NCBI GenBank assembly: GCA_942491415.1
Contig: CALOAD010000008.1
Location: forward strand, 29,896 to 93,895
DNA: 64,000 nucleotides
Direction: 5' to 3'
Source of the DNA: Candidatus Gastranaerophilales bacterium
Lineage (GTDB): Bacteria; Cyanobacteriota; Vampirovibrionia; Gastranaerophilales; CALOAD01
The notes under the pieces were generated by a model. The model was not told where the DNA came from. It worked only from the letters and a program-made list of their open reading frames with translations, and searched no databases. A program made the translations under genes and the position numbers. Of the stretch, positions 4,651-15,158 are shown piece by piece. Position 1 is the first letter of the stretch; the number at the start of each line of letters is the position of its first letter.

Positions 4651-5337
4651 TTATAAAAACGTCTCAATAAAAGAATCAATAAGCTTACTTGTATTTTCAG
4701 CTGCTCTTTCACAACATTGCCTTGCAATTACAGCCCAATCCTTTTTTCTATCATTAGAAATTTTAGGCATGCTTCTTGAATGCTCAACACTATCTGTAAA
4801 TAAATTTTTTGCAATCTCAAAAAAATCACCGCTAGTATTTGATTCACTCATTTTTATTTTTTGTTTAGACATTTTTCTTTGAGAGTTTTGAGCAAGTTGC
4901 TCAAAACTTAAATGCATTTTAGCTTCTATTACTTTTTGTATAAATGGAGCTTTTTCAGTGTGCAAAGGAACACTCATATCCTGTAAAAAATGTAATGCTC
5001 GACCAAATTGCTCAAAAGCCTCTGTGACCTTATTTTCTTTTATCAGTTCTGAAGCTTTTTTTAAATGTTCATTAAAACAATATTTTGCATTAAATTTATC
5101 ATTAAAATCTAAAAAACTTAATTTTGCACCTTTTTCAGCAGGTCCAAAATAAAAATGCTTATTTGCAAACCTACCAATTTCATCAAAATCAGGTTTTTGA
5201 ACAGCTTTTTCTAAGATAACCTTATTTTCAGCACTAATATATTTTCGCATATTTTTTATGGCTGTTCTTGTTAAAAGCGTATGATGCTTAAAATGCCAAC
5301 CAAAAGTTATGTTATTATGAGACCTAATATTATTCAA
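4651..5337 (-). CDS. Zinc-dependent phospholipase C-like fold protein (tentative)
   Basis: 228 aa. Order of W/H, PDFDE, KHFYFGP and GRALHFLQDMSVPLHT resembles the Zn-ligand layout of the clostridial alpha-toxin N-domain (GEAMHYFGDIDTPYH). No signal peptide seen. Confidence 0.5.
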   Translation of the reverse strand: MNNIRSHNNITFGWHFKHHTLLTRTAIKNMRKYISAENKVILEKAVQKPDFDEIGRFANKHFYFGPAEKGAKLSFLDFNDKFNAKYCFNEHLKKASELIKENKVTEAFEQFGRALHFLQDMSVPLHTEKAPFIQKVIEAKMHLSFEQLAQNSQRKMSKQKIKMSESNTSGDFFEIAKNLFTDSVEHSRSMPKISNDRKKDWAVIARQCCERAAENTSKLIDSFIETFL

Positions 5338-5446
5338 AATTCCTAACCTATATGTCTGTAGATTTATGTCGACTACTTATATATAAAACTATAATTGGGA
5401 AAATTAAATAAGTTATTACATGACTTTTAAGTAATCGTAACAAAAT

Positions 5447-6316
5447 TTATTGATTTTTAATCCAATCAATGAACTCTTTTTTCTTTTTATTTTTAATATA
5501 ATTAATTCTATTTACGTGAAAAAAATGACCATCCTTGGTCACAGAACCTTCCGTGGTTGAATCTTCATTTACAATTTCTTTTTGCTTTGCTATAACAGTT
5601 TTCACCGGATAGCTTTTAGCTGTATGATAAATTGCTCTTGCCGTTGAATAAGCCACATCAGAAGAAAACTTTTTTATTTCTTCAACAGGTTTTGTATTTT
5701 CACCAAAATATTGAGAAGGGACATTGAAATCCTCCACCCTGAATTCATCATTATAAGCACTTTCCCATATTTTTACCCCTTTGTAGGGATCAATTAATGT
5801 AGTTAGGATATTTAACTTATAAAAAGGAGAAATTTCTCTTGTACCCCAAAAGCATTTTTTAAAAGCACCAAATAAAGGAAAATCGTTAAAAAAATCAATT
5901 CCTCGTTCTTTTAAAACCATGCTACTTGTATCAAACCCACCAGAGACAAACAAAACTTGAGTAGCCCCTGTTGCCTCAGCAATTTCGTCCATTAAATCAT
6001 TGTCAAGAACATATCTTGTTTTGTAATTTTTTAAAAAACTTCTATACTTTTTATAAAGCCCTGCCCTTACTAAAATTCTCTCAGCTGTTATTGTATTTAT
6101 AATTTCGAGGTTAGTATCTCTTGATAAAACATTAGAAATATCTGCTGAAATTAAACTTATAACCTCAGGGTATATTGAAAAACTTGAACCTTGGACAGGG
6201 GTATCTATAGGCATAATAAGAATTTTATGTACATCTTTAGCCCATAAGGCAGCTTGTGCATTAAAAAAAATGAATATAAACGTTAAGAATATTAATAATT
6301 TTTTCATTTGTCTCAA
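5447..6316 (-). CDS. Hypothetical exported protein
   Basis: 289 aa with an N-terminal signal-like segment MRQMKKLLIFLTFIFIFFNAQAALWA. No recognisable domain. Confidence 0.6.
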   Translation of the reverse strand: MRQMKKLLIFLTFIFIFFNAQAALWAKDVHKILIMPIDTPVQGSSFSIYPEVISLISADISNVLSRDTNLEIINTITAERILVRAGLYKKYRSFLKNYKTRYVLDNDLMDEIAEATGATQVLFVSGGFDTSSMVLKERGIDFFNDFPLFGAFKKCFWGTREISPFYKLNILTTLIDPYKGVKIWESAYNDEFRVEDFNVPSQYFGENTKPVEEIKKFSSDVAYSTARAIYHTAKSYPVKTVIAKQKEIVNEDSTTEGSVTKDGHFFHVNRINYIKNKKKKEFIDWIKNQ

Positions 6317-6946: not shown

Positions 6947-8041
6947 TTATTCAAATAATTGTTTGTACTGTGGTGATAACTTATATTTTCTTGCTTTTTT
7001 AGAAAAATCTACCGCTTCTAAAAAACCTTCTTGATGCCATTTAAATGTAAGCTGTCTAGCACTTCTTGTTGAAAAATTAAAGAATAAAGCAACATCATTA
7101 CTTGTTATAATTTCTTGCTGATTGAATAAAGATAATATTTTTCTTTGCTTTGGATCAAGTTGCCTTAATAATGGTGATTGATCTATTTCGTTTTTGCTTA
7201 AAGCCACAAGAGAATGTTTTTCTACTTTGTCAAAAGCTTCTAGCATACCAATTATGAAATAGTTAACCCATTTAGTAATATCGGCTTCCGCTCTGCCCAT
7301 ATAATAATTATGAGAAGGTCCTATTGTAATAGCATCATAATAGGCAGAAAGATTTCTGGCATAATATTCTTCAAGCGAATATAAGCCTTTTAAATCATAT
7401 CCACCTGTATGTAAAACCAAAGTAGTTAAAAGCCTGGCAGTTCTTCCATTGCCATCATAATATGGATGTATTGTGGCAAATTGATAATGAGCAATAGCTG
7501 CAATTATAGGGCAAGGTATTTCCTCTTTATTTTGGTTAATCCAGCTAATTAAGTCTTTCATCAAAGGTGGAACGTCTTTAGCCTCTGGAGGCATATAAAC
7601 AATACGTCCTGTTAAACTGTCTTTTATTACATTTTGTCCATCCCTATATGGATTGGGTCTAATATTAGTAGAACCATTTGCACAAACAAGCGCATGAATT
7701 TTTTGTATTTGCTTTTCAACTAAAGGGTTATTCTTGATTGCTAATTTTTCAACTTCTGCTATTGCTGCATAATACCCTTTTACTTCACTTTCGTCTCTTT
7801 CTCTTCCGGCAATTTGCTTATTCTCTTTTATAACTTGTTGAACATCTTTTTGTGAAAGCCTATTGCCTTCAATCATTGTTGAATAATGTGTTGAATAAAG
7901 CTTTGCACTTTCTCGCAATCCTGCTAAAACTGAAGGGGTGATAGGCAAATTTTTAATACGCTCTTTTATTTGCTCAATCTTTATTAAAGCATTGGCAATT
8001 TGAGGTGTTATTTGATAGTTGGGTGAAAAATTTAACGGCAT
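6947..8041 (-). CDS. Fic/DOC family protein (class II, N-terminal inhibitory helix) with C-terminal winged-helix-like region
   Basis: 364 aa. Fic active-site motif HPYYDGNGRTARLL. Upstream S-x-x-x-E-G inhibitory motif in YSTMIEGN. Confidence 0.9.
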   Translation of the reverse strand: MPLNFSPNYQITPQIANALIKIEQIKERIKNLPITPSVLAGLRESAKLYSTHYSTMIEGNRLSQKDVQQVIKENKQIAGRERDESEVKGYYAAIAEVEKLAIKNNPLVEKQIQKIHALVCANGSTNIRPNPYRDGQNVIKDSLTGRIVYMPPEAKDVPPLMKDLISWINQNKEEIPCPIIAAIAHYQFATIHPYYDGNGRTARLLTTLVLHTGGYDLKGLYSLEEYYARNLSAYYDAITIGPSHNYYMGRAEADITKWVNYFIIGMLEAFDKVEKHSLVALSKNEIDQSPLLRQLDPKQRKILSLFNQQEIITSNDVALFFNFSTRSARQLTFKWHQEGFLEAVDFSKKARKYKLSPQYKQLFE

Positions 8042-8552: not shown

Positions 8553-10907
8553 TTACTTTTTTCTTAAACAGCATTTTTTATATTTTTTGCCACTTCCGCA
8601 AGGACATATATCATTGCGTCCTATTTTTTTCTTTGTATTTAATTTTTTCTGAAATCGTCTAGACTTAAGTAGCTCTACTTGAGAGTTGTATTTTTCTAAA
8701 TTTTCTTTATTTAGTTTCATTGTATATTTAACGATTTTAGAGTCATAAATTTTATTATTTTTATCAAAAGATAAAATTAGAGAAAGTCGCTCTTCCCTTT
8801 GTTGAATTATCATTGAAGGATATATAACATCATCCATTTCTTGTTGTGTCAAAAACGGTATGCCGTCTTGCTTGCAAAACATAGACATCCCAAATACTTC
8901 AAGATGCTTAGAGTGTCTTGAAATAAATTGTTCATTTAAAACTTGTTCAATTAAACTAATTATATGATTACGACCTGCTCCTGAAAAATCAAGTAATCTA
9001 CATATAGCTTCAGAAGACCACTTGTCTTGCTTTTCATTAACTATAGATAAAATATCTTTTAAAACAGGAGGCATCTCTTGTGCTGGTTTTATTGCCTCAT
9101 CTGGATAATGATTTAATGATAAATAATACTCATCAATCTTGTCTATATATGTGCCAAAAAAAGCTTTATCAAATTTATGTTCTTTTAAAAGCTCTTCAAT
9201 ATGCTGAACATATTTATTATGAGCAAAGTACATTCCTAAGTGATCTAATTCATCATTCAAATCAACAATATCAGATTGAGTTGCCAACATACGTTCTTTC
9301 AAAAAATGAGTAAATGTAATATCATTTTGAAATAAATCAGAGTAAACTCTTAATTCATCAATAGATAAAGACCAGGCTGGCTTATCTGGTATATTGAAGT
9401 CAACTTTTTTTAATAATGCGATATTATTTGCAAAAGTATTGAAGTTTTCTAATGAAATACTACATATAAAAATATTATCTATTTCATTATTTTTTAGTTT
9501 GAGTTTTACATTGCTATCTAAATCCTCTCTTTCATATAAAGAAATCTCAGAATTTTCATCTAAGATAGAGATAATTTTATCAGCTTGCTCAACTGGTGAT
9601 TCAAGTAATCTTTGAATAGAATCTTTATAAGAATTAAAATCTGAAAGAGGTGATTTTGTTTTAAATTTTCCTGCTTTTATTTCAAGAATAATTACATTTC
9701 CATCATAAATAATAATTCCATCATTTTCAGACCATTCATTTTTATACCTATAAAAATTTGAATCATAAAAAGATGCATTTGGTAAAATATTTTCAAATAA
9801 TTTAAAAGTAATAGATTGACATATTTTGCCTTGCTTCTTATTCCAGCTATCTCTATATGATGGTTTTTCTTGTAAAATAATATCTTCAAGATTTCTATAT
9901 ATATTATCAAACAAGTGTGATGTTTCAAAACAATAATATTTATTTTTATATTTCAAAAAAGGTTTAATCTTAATAGGAAGTTTTTTAAATGGTTGTCCTG
10001 AAAATTTGCCACTAAAAAATGTTTTATCTTTATTTGGCTCTAGTGAAAGAGCATCTAAAAGTTTTTCAGGTAATTCACATATTTTTTTTAAGTCGAAAAA
10101 ATCACAAGATTGTATTTTTGTTCCTGGTTCGTCAATATCGAAATCCAAATGTTTCTGTAATTCTTGTCTAACTTTTTCAATGTTTTCTATATCTTCAAGC
10201 TCATTTGCTATCTCATTAAATTTGTCATGAGTTTGCTTCAATAATTTCCATTGATTTAAATATCCTTGCTCTACAGAGTATTTAAGTTTTTTAAGCTCGT
10301 CAATTAATTTATCAAGTTCTATATCATAAAGCTCTTTGATAATATTTTTATGAGGTTGTAAAATTTCTTTTAAATGAATGAATTCAAAGTAAGCGTGTCT
10401 TTTACCACATACATTAATCCATTCCATTATAGTCATTGTTTTAAACTCATCAAAATTAAAATTATAGTCTGTTCGCTTTTTATTATGTTGAGATTGCGCA
10501 ATGGAATAAAATAGTGTTGAATTCATATAGATGGATTTAATCAGTTCAAATAGTTTTTTATATTCATTTTCATCTACAACAGTTTTTAAATTTACCTCTA
10601 ACTCAGAAGAAACTATTACACTTTGAACATAATCAATCATTCGTCTTGACATGTTTTCTTCCATAGACCACTCTGATTCAGAAATTTTTCCCACAGCAGA
10701 ACAAGCAAAATGTTCATATCCATATTTAAGTAAAGCTAATGGTTCATAACTTCTAATTATATACCTAGCTTCTATTACAGATTGCTGAAGCTGTTCTTCT
10801 ACAGTTTTTATATTAAATTGAGGTGAATACGCCATAAACCTACTCCACTCCAATGCTTCTGCCGTACCAAACAACTTTGCCGATGACCTTAATATCTTGG
10901 CTTTCAT
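8553..10907 (-). CDS. SEC-C motif protein with a possible PD-(D/E)xK nuclease core
   Basis: 784 aa. C-terminal [16 protein letters not shown] is a SEC-C metal-binding motif. The internal segment [22 protein letters not shown] has the D...E-x-K spacing of restriction-endonuclease-like folds. Confidence 0.75.
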
Positions 10908-11814: not shown

Positions 11815-11968
11815 AAAAATAATTAGGTTATTTGAATTTCATAATAGTCCACACCCGTATCACAGAAAACATATTTTATGGATGTCGGGCATGTTTTTTT
11901 ATGTAGAATGCTAGTGCTTTAATGTCCTTGCCGTCTGACAGGCTGAGAATGTGATACTCTTTAGGCAT
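11815..11968 (-). pseudogene. Decayed 5' remnant of a PAPS-reductase-family gene (same family as P1-P4 at 48.9-58.5 kb)
   Basis: The minus strand from the ATG at 11968 reads MPKEYHILSLSDGKDIKALAFYIKK, then after a 2-nt loss MPDIH, then after about 8 nt lost YVFCDTGVD. Compare P2: KEYHILSLSGGKDSTALAFYIKENMPDIHEKIEYVFCDTGVD. Nucleotide similarity is visible across about 150 bp and is truncated at repeat R3. Confidence 0.75.
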
Positions 11969-13193
11969 TTGTAATCTCCCTGACTAAAGCCAATTGCTGA
12001 GGCTTTGAAAGCTTTTTAACAGCCTTATAAACACTATTTAAAACCTTGTCAAAATCGATTGAGTTCTTGCCTGTAAGATTTTCTAATCCTTGCGTTTTAA
12101 TAGCAATTTCTTTAATTTTCTGCTTAAAATCAGCAAGGTCATTATCGCACCAATCTTTTGGCACTCGCTTTTTATTCACTACGGTTGCAACTCTTTCTAA
12201 CCAACGATTATAAGGCAGGTCATCGATTAAGATATTATTAGCAAAAATCTTTAATTCATCATTTGAAATATATTCAAAGATATTTTTAAACTTAGTTTCT
12301 AATGCCTCTTTATCCGCTACTTTAATGCTTAGCGACTCAAACAAAAAGCTTTCAATCTCTTGTATAAGCGAGTTATAGCAAGAGTCCATTTCATCAAATG
12401 ATTGTTTTAATTCATCAATACTAAATCTTTTTAAATCTCTAAAAATAAGGGCGTGTGGTTCTTTGGCATTCATTATAATATTTCGCACTCGTTCTGTGGT
12501 TTTGGTTAGGATTGTGGTTTGTTTGGTAAATTTTTCCAATTCTCTAACTTTGACTACAATCCCTTTGACCAAGTGAAGTAGATTTGAAGTGTTTTCTTTT
12601 AAAAGAGTTTCTGATAAAAGCTCAATATACTTTCGCTTTTCACCATCAAAAATATTCTTTTGAAGCTCAAAGTTTTGAGGATTAGCCATTAGTCTATCAA
12701 ATAAAAGCGGAGTAATTTCTAGTGAAAAAGCATTTTTCTCATAAAGTGAAACTTTATCACCTTGCTTCAATAAAACATCAAGCAATAAAAGCGAAATAAT
12801 TGTTTTTGTCAGGCCGTATGGTTCACTTGATAGTTTTGTATAAAGCTCTTGGATATTCGATTTTACTTCAGCCCTGTGGATAAATATCTCAATTTCATCT
12901 CTAATGCATTTAATTTTAACATCTTTTCTAAAAAGCTCTTGAACCATTGCAAGCTCAACACTATTAGCTTTTAAATCTTTATCTTCAATTAAGTGTTTAA
13001 TTACTTCTCTAATAGCCTTAGTACCTGTTGCAGGTGGTTTATTCTGAGTTAAATATTCATTTTTAAAACTTGGGCATCTATCATATTTTTTGTCGAAATA
13101 ATTAGAAATCTCAGGTTGAGATAAATCCTCATCGCCTTCATATATTCTCGTAAAACCTGTTTCAATTAAATGTCGTTTTGCTAGTAGTGTCAT
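11961..13193 (-). CDS. Hypothetical protein (helical, 410 aa) directly upstream of the PAPS-reductase remnant
   Basis: Long ORF. Its stop at 11961-11963 lies 2 nt before the remnant ATG (11968). No motif I can name with confidence. Confidence 0.65.
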   Translation of the reverse strand: MTLLAKRHLIETGFTRIYEGDEDLSQPEISNYFDKKYDRCPSFKNEYLTQNKPPATGTKAIREVIKHLIEDKDLKANSVELAMVQELFRKDVKIKCIRDEIEIFIHRAEVKSNIQELYTKLSSEPYGLTKTIISLLLLDVLLKQGDKVSLYEKNAFSLEITPLLFDRLMANPQNFELQKNIFDGEKRKYIELLSETLLKENTSNLLHLVKGIVVKVRELEKFTKQTTILTKTTERVRNIIMNAKEPHALIFRDLKRFSIDELKQSFDEMDSCYNSLIQEIESFLFESLSIKVADKEALETKFKNIFEYISNDELKIFANNILIDDLPYNRWLERVATVVNKKRVPKDWCDNDLADFKQKIKEIAIKTQGLENLTGKNSIDFDKVLNSVYKAVKKLSKPQQLALVREITNA

Positions 13194-13251: not shown

Positions 13252-13503
13252 TTATTTATTTAAATCGCACCACTTTTTTTCTTCATTCCATTTCCAATTG
13301 TATTTTAGACAATTTTCTTTGGTTATTTTTACTTTTCCGTATTCAGTATTTACTTCTAACCCTTCAATACACTTGCCTGTATCCAAACAGTAATCTTTAT
13401 CATCAAAGAGTATAGTTGATCCAATAAAAATCAATATAATGGGAACTAAAATAATAATAAGTGATATAACAAATTTTTTCATAGTATTAATTTTATCATA
13501 CAA
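13252..13503 (-). CDS. Small membrane-anchored Cys-containing protein (candidate immunity/partner of the upstream gene)
   Basis: 83 aa with TM segment FVISLIIILVPIILIFIGSTILF followed by a 4-Cys ectodomain. Starts 9 nt after the MuF/SAA gene. Confidence 0.55.
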   Translation of the reverse strand: MYDKINTMKKFVISLIIILVPIILIFIGSTILFDDKDYCLDTGKCIEGLEVNTEYGKVKITKENCLKYNWKWNEEKKWCDLNK

Positions 13504-13512
13504 ATCAAATTA

Positions 13513-14169
13513 CTAATACTTATCAGGCAAGCCTTTAGGTCTTTCGCCTGGGTACATATCTCCGCAATCACCATCAGGATTGTCTTGTCCACATTCTCTA
13601 CCGGCTTTGTTTGCTTCCATATCTTCTTTAGCGTCTTCGATTTGCTCTATAAGGTCATAACCTTTAAATATTACATTATTTGCGCCTTCAATTAGCTCTC
13701 TGGCTAAACTGAGTGCTTCTGCAATTTTTTCCTGATCTCTTTGTGCTGCTTCGCAATTAGCCTTAAAGTGAAAATATTTATCAGCCCCAATAGTATTTGC
13801 TTCTTTCATGTCTTGATAATTTGAAGCAAAATCCCCTAGGGCATTATCCCAAGTTGCTATTTCTGAAATTATCCCGTTTACAGCACCTGAAAAAAATTCT
13901 CCCGCAGAAGATTGAAGTTCACTGACTAAATCACTTAACTCAGATTGAGCACTTTGAGTATCGCCTACAGCTTCATCAATTGCACTATAATCAGGCTCAT
14001 ACTCACAAGGTTGAGCATAAACTTCTTTTACTGCACAATCACAATTAGGATGAGGTCTATCAGGAGCATCTTCAGGATTCTTAAATTGAGTTCCGTTTAA
14101 TGCCTGACAAGCATCGCAAGAATCTCCACCTGCTTCCCATTCATAATGATCAATTATTTGTTCTTCCAT
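13513..14169 (-). CDS. Phage MuF C-terminal motif + serum amyloid A-like domain protein
   Basis: 218 aa. N-terminus: WEAGGDSCDACQALNGTQF...PHPNCDC (MuF/SPP1 gp7-type C-x2-C...HPNC-x-C). C-terminus: DMKEANTIGADKYFHFKANCEAAQR...ARELIEG...EANKAGR...PKGLPDKY aligns with vertebrate SAA [25 protein letters not shown]...ARENIQR...AANEWGR...PAGLPEKY, including the terminal GLP-x-KY. Confidence 0.8.
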   Translation of the reverse strand: MEEQIIDHYEWEAGGDSCDACQALNGTQFKNPEDAPDRPHPNCDCAVKEVYAQPCEYEPDYSAIDEAVGDTQSAQSELSDLVSELQSSAGEFFSGAVNGIISEIATWDNALGDFASNYQDMKEANTIGADKYFHFKANCEAAQRDQEKIAEALSLARELIEGANNVIFKGYDLIEQIEDAKEDMEANKAGRECGQDNPDGDCGDMYPGERPKGLPDKY

Positions 14170-14172
14170 TTT

Positions 14173-14718
14173 TTAGCTCCATTTCATTTTTAAATTATCT
14201 AAAACTTTATTTACTTTTCTTTCCGTATTAATCCTACGGTTATCTTTTGTGTCAAAAATTATATTATTTACTGCTCCACGCTTAATATATTTTTTAATAA
14301 CTCCTAGAGTGTAATGCTTTGATAGTTCAATTAATCGTGCTTTGGTTTTGTCTCCAAAGTCACCATCATATTTTACTTTCCAGCCTTTATTTGCAGCAGA
14401 AATAGCTTTCCCTTTATTTAAAAGATTAATACCCCTTTGAACATCCTTTATTGCTTGTTCTTTTCCAACATCTGCAATATGCTCTTCAATAAAGTTTAAA
14501 ATTTCTTGTGCTCTAGGACATGTCGCTAACTTGTGTTCTACTTCTTGTTTTGATGTTTCGACTTTTTGATTTTGCTGAACTTGTTTTTGACTTAATTCAT
14601 TGGAAAATGGTATTCCGCTACTACGCATTTGCTCCATAATTTCATTTTCTTTTGAAGAGAATTCATCTGATGTCATTTGGTCAATGAATTCTCGAGTGTA
14701 AATTCGTTTGTTTTTCAT
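14173..14718 (-). CDS. Hypothetical protein with peptidoglycan-binding-like motif
   Basis: 181 aa. VQRGINLL...YDGDFGDKTKARL resembles the PG_binding_1 signature (DG-x-FG-x-x-T). Confidence 0.5.
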   Translation of the reverse strand: MKNKRIYTREFIDQMTSDEFSSKENEIMEQMRSSGIPFSNELSQKQVQQNQKVETSKQEVEHKLATCPRAQEILNFIEEHIADVGKEQAIKDVQRGINLLNKGKAISAANKGWKVKYDGDFGDKTKARLIELSKHYTLGVIKKYIKRGAVNNIIFDTKDNRRINTERKVNKVLDNLKMKWS

Positions 14719-15158
14719 TTAATATTCCTTTCTATTTTATATTTTTTGCCATCAAATTTAATTAACCCCAATTCAAAAAATGGATTTTCAGGAGCATATT
14801 CTGAGTACATTTTTAGAAAGGCTTTAACGTCACGACTTATAGCTCTATCTGAAGCATCCTTAAATGTTTCTTTACAAGCTTCTATAAGCTTTTCCAATGA
14901 AAAAGAACTTTTCATTTTTGAAAAAGTAAACATCCACACCGGTAGTTCTAAAATCTGTTTATGCAGATTTTCAATACTTTTCAGGTCTTCCAAGTAGGGG
15001 TCTTCTTTTAAAATGCTTAAATCAAAAACGCTTTTCCAAAATTTTAAGCTATTGATTTTTGTTTTTCCAAGACCTGAATAATCTTCTTCTAGCATCCTTT
15101 TGAAATCTCTAAGGCAAGGATAATGCCCTTGGCTTCTGCCAATGGTGTTAATAGTCAT
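14715..15158 (-). CDS. Hypothetical protein (first gene of the island operon)
   Basis: 147 aa with a 4-nt overlap with the next gene. Preceded by two perfect palindromic sites. Confidence 0.55.
   Translation of the reverse strand: MTINTIGRSQGHYPCLRDFKRMLEEDYSGLGKTKINSLKFWKSVFDLSILKEDPYLEDLKSIENLHKQILELPVWMFTFSKMKSSFSLEKLIEACKETFKDASDRAISRDVKAFLKMYSEYAPENPFFELGLIKFDGKKYKIERNIK

Follow-up and report, generated by a model that had tools for sequence, protein, structure and literature searches.

What a serum amyloid A (SAA) family domain, best known from an animal acute-phase protein, does at the end of a bacterial protein is the question raised by the locus described here. The locus lies in a stretch of 64,000 nucleotides from a Candidatus Gastranaerophilales bacterium (contig CALOAD010000008.1, positions 29,896 to 93,895), referred to as the window. 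An open reading frame (ORF) of 218 amino acids with an ATG start is found on the minus strand (13513..14169, stop codon at 13513-13515) and had been described, in a sequence-only reading, as an SAA-like domain joined to a motif of the phage MuF head-morphogenesis domain. The analysis points, with a probability of about three in four, to a three-gene cassette of polymorphic-toxin type that belongs to the published prok-SAA class, with this ORF encoding a toxin that would act on lipid head groups in the periplasm. The class, including the MuF fusion and the immunity protein, was already published in 2025, and the window locus is an ordinary further member of it.

The C-terminal half of the toxin is a genuine SAA-family domain. 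The Pfam SAA profile PF00277 matched the ORF with 67.4 bits (E=1.6e-18; gathering cutoff 30.8 bits), residues 111-218 corresponding to profile positions 11-102 of 102. A phmmer search of the PDB with the same ORF gave SAA chains as all of the 8 best matches, with 7zh7_A first (E=4.8e-12). All motif pairs quoted in the sequence-only reading are found when the ORF is aligned to human SAA1, namely DMKEANTIGADKYFHFKANCEAAQR, ARE, ANxxGR and the shared terminal GLP(D/E)KY. An AlphaFold2 model was built on an alignment of 32 family members, RHS-type ones included (alignment A1), and had a mean predicted local distance difference test score (pLDDT) of 79.6, with values above 80-95 over residues 110-218. 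Two of its parts are confident: residues 6-51 form a strand-helix-strand mini-domain, and four helices (104-124, 130-143, 147-168 and 173-196) make up a second domain, with a linker of low confidence between the two. When the model was compared with the PDB using Foldseek, the top 7 matches were SAA crystal structures (mouse SAA3 6pxz, 6py0 and 4q5g; human SAA1 4ip8 and 4ip9) with target-normalized template modeling (TM) scores of 0.71-0.76 and probability 1.00, and the next match had an E value of 2.7. The proposed SAA-like domain was thus borne out both by the profile search and by superposition on the SAA fold. From sequence, fold and invariant columns together, the prok-SAA toxin domain extends over toxin residues 104-218 (13516..13860, minus strand). 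The preceding residues 52-103 (13861..14016, minus strand) form a linker with predicted helices of low confidence (pLDDT 45-64), and both its length and its sequence vary throughout the family.

The prok-SAA domain was defined computationally by Burroughs, Nicastro & Aravind (eLife 2025;14:RP108061; PMC12419801) as a Lipocone-superfamily tip of polymorphic toxins and as the bacterial progenitor of animal SAA. This superfamily groups SAA with the lipid II phosphatase toxin TelC and with the phosphatidylserine synthases (PTDSS), and the active site proposed for it consists of a His in helix H2, a Glu in H3 and an Asp in H4, with an additional sNxxGR motif in the SAA-Wnt clade (PMC12419801). Alignment A1 shows no variation at H134, E158, D183, N187 and G190, and at least 90% of its members share R191; the sNxxGR motif reads A-N187-K-A-G190-R191 in the window protein, which ends in GLPDKY. 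The invariance of H134, E158, D183 and the NxxGR residues thus matches the published Lipocone active-site set. The family definition also includes a short fifth helix that packs between H2 and H4; in the model, DSSP assigns residues 197-218 as coil (pLDDT 90-95).

The same fold could also serve a toxin that is no enzyme. Such a protein would bind lipids or disrupt membranes, by lipid sequestration or permeabilization, much as vertebrate SAA binds lipids and retinol and oligomerizes, which is in substance what the sequence-only reading had proposed. The fold is that of the SAA crystal structures, including the retinol-bound SAA3 structure 6py0, and enzymatic activity has never been shown for any SAA-family protein, TelC being the sole characterized Lipocone toxin (PMC12419801). 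However, the invariant positions are polar or charged and not hydrophobic (H134, K136, N138, R157, E158, D183 and N187), and they coincide with active-site positions of TelC and PTDSS (PMC12419801). They are also kept strictly across MuF- and RHS-type toxins at 30-45% identity, which is more typical of catalysis. A non-enzymatic mode of action is therefore considered improbable, although it is the strongest competitor for the function of the domain itself. The earlier suggestion that the domain acts on lipids agrees with the current published prediction (PMC12419801), in which the domain would be a lipid-head-group enzyme.

The cysteines of the SAA domain differ between groups of relatives. 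The window domain has C139, C193 and C202. Two cysteine classes were observed among the bacterial domains: those of RHS and other types from Proteobacteria and other phyla (loci L042-L087) have four cysteines in the pattern HC...NC...CxxxC, probably forming two disulfides, while the MuF-type members from Melainabacteria (L001-L041) have the cysteine of the NC motif plus only 0-2 more. A conserved disulfide was considered as a general trait of MuF-type SAA domains and was rejected because the number of tail cysteines ranges from 0 to 2 in these members and the four-cysteine pattern is consistent only in the RHS type.

Directly downstream of the toxin gene lies its cognate immunity gene, which the sequence-only reading missed. 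The gene (13252..13482, minus strand) begins 31 nt past the toxin stop codon with an ATG at 13482 and encodes a protein of 76 amino acids with an N-terminal transmembrane helix and an ectodomain with four cysteines. The N-terminus, MKKFVISLIIILVPIILIFIGSTILF, is hydrophobic and is modeled as a helix from residue 2 to 35, and the cysteines follow the pattern CLDTGKC...(19)...C...(13)...C. In about 30 loci, the SAA gene is directly followed by a homologue of this gene. About 25 of 30 distinct sequences have exactly four cysteines in the spacing CLDxxxC...C...C, which is invariant in alignment A2.

The published Imm-SAA family is characterized by an alpha-helix and four beta-strands, four absolutely conserved cysteines and a predicted action in the periplasm (PMC12419801). 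The model of the window protein shows strands at residues 37-39, 43-46 and 49-52, a short helix at 55-60 and strands at 64-66 and 71-73, with a pLDDT of 87-94 over the ectodomain. It describes a small cysteine-stabilized alpha/beta domain, and its topology, obtained from 5 sequences only, is not identical to the published helix and four strands. A Foldseek search of the PDB with this model gave no structural relative. From the N-terminal Lys-Lys and the positive-inside rule, the ectodomain would face outward, and the 76-residue protein looks like a membrane-anchored, outward-facing immunity protein of the Imm-SAA type. In some relatives, a second Imm-SAA copy or a second, partial SAA segment is found downstream of the main cassette (L010, positions 4970-5113 and 5627-5821; L016, positions 5142-5405). 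Such extra segments may represent orphaned immunity genes or toxin tips of the kind known from other polymorphic toxin loci.

At the other end of the toxin, residues 1-51 (14017..14169, minus strand) form the strand-helix-strand mini-domain, modeled with a pLDDT above 90. They contain the motif W-x6-CxxC ... HPNCxC, which is a possible zinc site. The Pfam MuF profile PF04233 gave 13.5 bits (E=0.12; cutoff 29.6 bits), with residues 8-47 aligned to profile positions 66-111 of 112, while TIGR01641 (SPP1_gp7) gave E=0.0079. PHROG 115, annotated as 'minor head protein', matched residues 2-46 (E=7.8e-4), and the head-protein PHROGs 595 and 1657 matched too. No significant match was obtained when the toxin model was compared with viral structures using Foldseek (best E=0.23); the short alignments to viral models (45-55 columns, root-mean-square deviation 2.2-3.3 A, none significant) were mostly to proteins of the 'minor capsid / MuF-like' kind. 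The same region scores higher in homologues, with 37.3 bits in P0080, which is over the cutoff, 28.7 bits in P0009 and a PHROG E value of 4.5e-8 in P0016. These stronger scores make the weak match in the window credible. The toxin N-terminus is accepted as homologous to the C-terminal motif of MuF, and the full MuF domain is absent from the toxin chain. The MuF motif claimed from the sequence thus stands by way of the homologues, while the profile match in the window protein itself is weak and covers the last third of the domain only.

The other half of the MuF domain was located in the ORF directly upstream (14173..14718, minus strand, 181 amino acids), a putative delivery or adaptor module. 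The two ORFs are in one frame with only TAA-AAA between them, the in-frame TAA stop being at 14173-14175. A conceptual read-through of both aligned colinearly, across the TAA junction, to residues 811-1001 of the homologue P0090 (E=3e-12), whose residues 891-997 match the Pfam MuF domain (48 bits, profile positions 5-110). By this colinearity, the N-terminal half of MuF is represented by residues ~127-181 of the upstream ORF and the C-terminal half by toxin residues 1-47. PF04233 against the read-through itself gave 12.5 bits, which is below the cutoff.

In front of the MuF half, the upstream ORF contains a module at residues ~85-145, QAIKDVQRGINLL...YDGDFGDKTKARL, which is present as four repeats in P0090. 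There the repeats overlap matches to PG_binding_1 and PG_binding_3, and the module is therefore termed peptidoglycan-binding-like. An exhaustive HMMER search gave 83 relatives of the upstream ORF, mostly stand-alone proteins of 110-240 amino acids that end directly after the module. A homologue of the upstream ORF is found directly 5' of the toxin gene in about 14 loci. The exhaustive search was needed, since a word-indexed search with the upstream module and the MuF tail gave only 1 extra relative. The beginning of the upstream ORF (residues 1-50; 14569..14718, minus strand) is occupied by a motif of about 45 amino acids, IYTREFIDQMTSDEFSSKENEIMEQM. In the form IYTREFIDQMTSDEFSSKENEIMEQM...GIPF, the motif is seen again close to the C-terminus of toxin-like proteins that are otherwise unrelated, namely P0075 (DUF6973, two copies), P0095 (a PBECR1 phage-type nuclease) and P0098 (lipase-like), and P0036 has two copies of it. 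The repeat may serve docking or act as an adaptor.

A domain interrupted by an in-frame stop codon could be the sign of a decaying cassette, in which TAA is a nonsense mutation in a gene that once encoded a single-chain toxin. The shared frame and the short TAA-AAA spacer are as expected from such a mutation, and single-chain versions with the module fused to the toxin do exist (P0011, P0076 and P0080, the last with the architecture PG_binding_1, module, MuF and SAA). The cassette is also flanked by truncated sspB and sspC genes, described below, and position 145 and the length of one loop in the window protein differ from the consensus of the family. However, a Shine-Dalgarno sequence, GGAG, is present 7 nt 5' of the toxin ATG, within the end of the upstream ORF (14177..14180, minus strand), and at least 6 toxin homologues begin with Met at the same position. 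The split design recurs in 12 other loci. In all of them, GGAGG or GAGGA lies within the last part of the upstream ORF, whose stop codon is overlapped or abutted by an ATG, and in most of these the upstream ORF is in a different frame from the toxin ORF. Because of these 12 loci, the Met starts of the homologues and the many stand-alone relatives of the upstream module that end at this point, the split is not a one-off accident. Both stop-codon read-through and a nonsense pseudogene were rejected as the main explanation of the TAA, since the other split loci have their own Shine-Dalgarno sequence and start codon and mostly use other frames. All three ORFs of the window cassette are intact and every invariant residue is kept, which leaves decay a very small probability. 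Read from these sequences, two translationally coupled genes share the MuF domain between them, and the toxin is not a decayed, truncated MuF protein. The description of the toxin as truncated in the sequence-only reading was therefore abandoned, the missing half being encoded next to it.

The module and the MuF tail are also found with tips other than SAA: P0058 carries an unknown tip and P0091 a tip with a weak Phage_lysozyme match. SAA domains, in turn, directly follow the DPxG end of the RHS core in P0025, P0027, P0028, P0031 and P0032 and in many loci of Proteobacteria, Nitrospira and Acidobacteria, which is where a toxin tip canonically sits. By definition, a polymorphic-toxin system combines a common delivery part, tips that can be exchanged and a small immunity gene next to them. 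The assignment of the locus to systems of this type, first made from the sequence, is thus upheld, with the conserved downstream immunity gene now included.

In the sequence-only reading, MuF domains were noted as carriers of toxin tips in phage-borne polymorphic toxins; the window cassette has no phage context. No portal, terminase, capsid or other phage gene was found within ±12 kb of the cassette when the neighbors were scanned with Pfam, PHROGs and PADLOC. The genes within this distance are dut, pnp, a SIS-domain gene, a Fic gene (SoFic), the gene for a SEC-C-motif protein, Ssp fragments, rnhB, ylqF, rplS, gpsA and der. On the upstream side of the toxin the order is the 181-residue module ORF, the SspB fragment and rnhB, with no portal gene. 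Likewise, no phage genes were found within ±8 kb of the loci of four relatives, which have housekeeping neighbors.

These neighborhoods bear on the possibility that the locus is a remnant of prophage head morphogenesis, that is, a classical capsid-packaged MuF toxin, injected together with DNA, that is now stranded in the chromosome. The similarity to MuF, minor head and head-morphogenesis proteins is in line with such an origin, and so is the finding that a phage-type nuclease protein (PBECR1) shares the motif at the start of the upstream ORF. However, phage genes are lacking around the window cassette and around the four relatives, and the cassette is located in many different chromosomal neighborhoods (flagellar, aro and ribosomal genes). 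Modules of the peptidoglycan-binding type invariably accompany the MuF part, and the immunity protein indicates action in the periplasm rather than injection into the cytoplasm. A stranded prophage toxin is accordingly regarded as highly unlikely. A different relation to phages is tentatively suggested, at odds of about one to three: the MuF domain of Melainabacteria may have been domesticated from phages. The two-piece module with its peptidoglycan-binding-like domain might then serve phage-independent export or targeting of periplasm-acting toxins, and the cargo might be the SAA/Lipocone tip, the lysozyme-like tip or the unknown tip. If true, this would be a delivery mechanism distinct from capsid packaging and from the known secretion systems.

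The favored reading of the locus as a prok-SAA cassette can be described gene by gene. The first gene (14173..14718) would supply the peptidoglycan-binding-like module and the N-terminal half of MuF. The second (13513..14169), translationally coupled to the first, would encode the C-terminal MuF half, a flexible helical linker and the soluble SAA/Lipocone toxic tip. The two MuF halves would reassemble non-covalently, and the MuF and peptidoglycan-binding module would serve export or targeting. The toxin is predicted to act outside the cytoplasm, in the periplasm of a competitor, where the SAA domain would cleave a phosphate-linked lipid head group; this step is suggested by the homology to TelC and PTDSS and by the location of the immunity protein. 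Undecaprenyl-PP-linked cell-wall precursors are the leading candidate substrate, by likeness to TelC, and outer-leaflet phospholipids are another example. The product of the third gene (13252..13482), a membrane-anchored Imm-SAA with its ectodomain in the periplasm, would neutralize the toxin there.

Several points weigh against this reading. Vertebrate SAA is known as a binder of lipids and retinol and not as an enzyme. For the prok-SAA proteins, enzymatic activity, target and site of action are predictions drawn from the relationship to TelC and PTDSS and from the immunity protein's topology. The match of the toxin ORF to MuF is under every curated threshold. No signal peptide was found on the toxin or on the upstream ORF, and no secretion system or phage is found nearby. 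The window protein has D145 where at least 90% of the family members have Gly, its loop between helices 2 and 3 is 2 residues shorter than in the family (QRDQEKIAEALSLARE versus QRGxxGExxAxxISDLRE), and it has GERP where the family has YRP. Finally, the cassette is placed among fragments of sspB and sspC, so that functional decay is possible. The departures from the consensus fall in residues 143-158 and 205-211, and the invariant residues are all kept.

The closest known counterpart is the prok-SAA class itself, with 195 loci counted (PMC12419801). Its members are delivered by MuF or by type VI secretion system (T6SS)/RHS proteins and are accompanied by a membrane-anchored, four-cysteine Imm-SAA, summarized as 'Prok-SAA: T6SS, MuF, TM+Imm-SAA' (PMC12419801). 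In the published context network, MuF with a C-terminal prok-SAA accounts for 19 loci, a downstream Imm-SAA for 14 and a downstream prok-SAA for 3 (PMC12419801). The MuF-SAA fusion is thus not new, being already in the source data of Burroughs et al. (PMC12419801). The window locus shares with the class the domain, the H/E/D and sNxxGR residues, the position as C-terminal tip, the association with MuF and the downstream transmembrane four-cysteine Imm-SAA, and nothing essential is different. The exact window protein and its Imm motif were sought in the supplements of PMC12419801 and not found; a homologue from Melainabacteria with the same architecture and 43% identity (P0006, OGH97551.1) is in that dataset. 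Three local details are not spelled out in the published text, namely the MuF domain split over coupled ORFs, the preceding peptidoglycan-binding-like module and the insertion into sspB/sspC.

The MuF toxins of temperate phages described by Jamet et al. (BMC Biol 2017, PMC5576092) have a MuF-type N-terminus, a variable toxin tip and a small downstream ORF (<150 amino acids; 76 here) in common with the window locus. The curated MuF definition used there comprises PF04233, PF06152, MuF3 and MuF4, of which PF04233 was used for the comparison with the window ORF. By this profile the window toxin chain has only half a MuF domain and falls below the curated threshold. Genes of that class directly follow a portal gene in the DNA-packaging module of a (pro)phage. 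The window locus differs in having neither an upstream portal gene nor a prophage, and its host belongs to Melainabacteria, whereas the toxins of Jamet et al. are from Firmicutes. Classical MuF toxins mostly carry tips that work in the cytoplasm as nucleases, ADP-ribosyltransferases or (p)ppApp synthetases, while the immunity protein here appears to be extracytoplasmic, which implies a periplasmic target.

The SAA proteins of metazoa (SAA1, SAA3; 4ip8, 4q5g, 6pxz) share the four-helix fold (TM 0.71-0.76), 30-36% identity over ~110 residues and the motifs DMxEAN, DKYFH, ARE, ANxxGR and terminal GLPxKY with the window domain. In contrast, metazoan SAA is a stand-alone acute-phase apolipoprotein of ~104 amino acids that is secreted by a signal peptide and has no immunity partner, whereas the bacterial domain forms the tip of a toxin with several domains. 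In the window protein of 218 residues it follows a MuF tail and a linker, and there is no N-terminal hydrophobic signal. The bacterial domains also carry cysteines, three here and four in the RHS type. Animals are proposed to have acquired SAA from such bacterial toxins (PMC12419801).

TelC of Streptococcus intermedius, with its immunity protein TipC, belongs to the same superfamily (PMC12419801) and is the functional template for the predicted mechanism. TelC is active only outside the cytoplasm, and TipC is membrane-anchored and outward-facing (Whitney et al. 2017 as summarized in PMC12419801). The pair differs from the window locus in belonging to another family of the superfamily, in delivery through LXG and the type VII secretion system and in the unrelated fold of the immunity protein. 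The activity of TelC was shown experimentally, while that of the window SAA domain is a prediction. The RHS/T6SS prok-SAA toxins (P0025, P0027, P0028, P0031 and P0032; L050-L084) have a homologous domain with the same invariant residues. They differ by the RHS cage, by a tip placed after a DPxG autoproteolysis motif, by the four conserved cysteines and by their occurrence mostly in Proteobacteria and other phyla.

Relatives of the toxin were found in 168 species in a scan of one representative genome per species, in which the window's own genome is not included; the best match was 57% identical. Together with the 195 published loci (PMC12419801) this contradicts the earlier statement that bacterial SAA members are few. 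By its relatives, the window most likely belongs to a low-GC (30-35%) chromosome of Melainabacteria type. Full-length matches with both MuF tail and SAA are concentrated in Melainabacteria, Gastranaerophilales and Vampirovibrio metagenome-assembled genomes from gut and rumen. Matches to SAA only are found in Proteobacteria, Verrucomicrobia, Nitrospira, photosynthetic Cyanobacteria and Acidobacteria. Some contigs with the Melainabacteria-type cassette (L008, L010, L012 and L022) bear the labels 'uncultured Gammaproteobacteria', 'Muribaculaceae' or 'Acinetobacter sp.', probably through automatic mislabeling or because the contigs were mis-binned.

On either side of the cassette are remains of a DNA-phosphorothioation (Ssp) system. 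On the upstream side is a fragment of SspB/DUF4007 (14715..15158, minus strand, 147 amino acids; model positions ~85-201 of 295, E=3e-12), and on the downstream side the C-terminal third of SspC (11961..13193, minus strand; positions ~749-1052 of ~1054, E=3e-47). Neither sspA nor sspD adjoins these fragments. From this arrangement, the inner part of an sspB-sspC pair seems to have been replaced by the cassette. Base composition gave no sign of a recent transfer, as the GC content of the cassette (30-35%) is the same as that of its flanks. Further downstream are a SoFic-type Fic protein (6947..8041, minus strand; PADLOC E=3e-50) and, next to it, a protein of 784 amino acids (8553..10907, minus strand) that has a SEC-C motif at its C-terminus and also a region weakly resembling NERD. 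The GC content of the SEC-C gene is unusually low, 24-28% compared with 30-35% around it. A SEC-C protein is likewise found 3.5 kb from the SAA cassette in the relative L002. The SoFic and SEC-C genes and the Ssp remnants look like a degraded defense island beside rnhB-ylqF-rplS. The three cassette proteins themselves gave no match to any known anti-phage defense system in PADLOC.

The window locus adds no new concept to the class, and its local peculiarities are minor: MuF is split, phage genes are lacking around it and the cassette is inserted into Ssp remnants. It is a compact and complete case, with a toxin domain of 115 residues and an immunity protein of 76, and is suited to a first biochemical test of a prok-SAA toxin. 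The recurrent split of MuF over two coupled genes in a phage-free chromosome raises the question of how such toxins exit the cell. The class as a whole ties the animal acute-phase protein SAA to toxins of bacterial warfare, as published in 2025 in eLife, and by the idea put forward there SAA itself is predicted to have an unrecognized enzymatic activity on lipid head groups.

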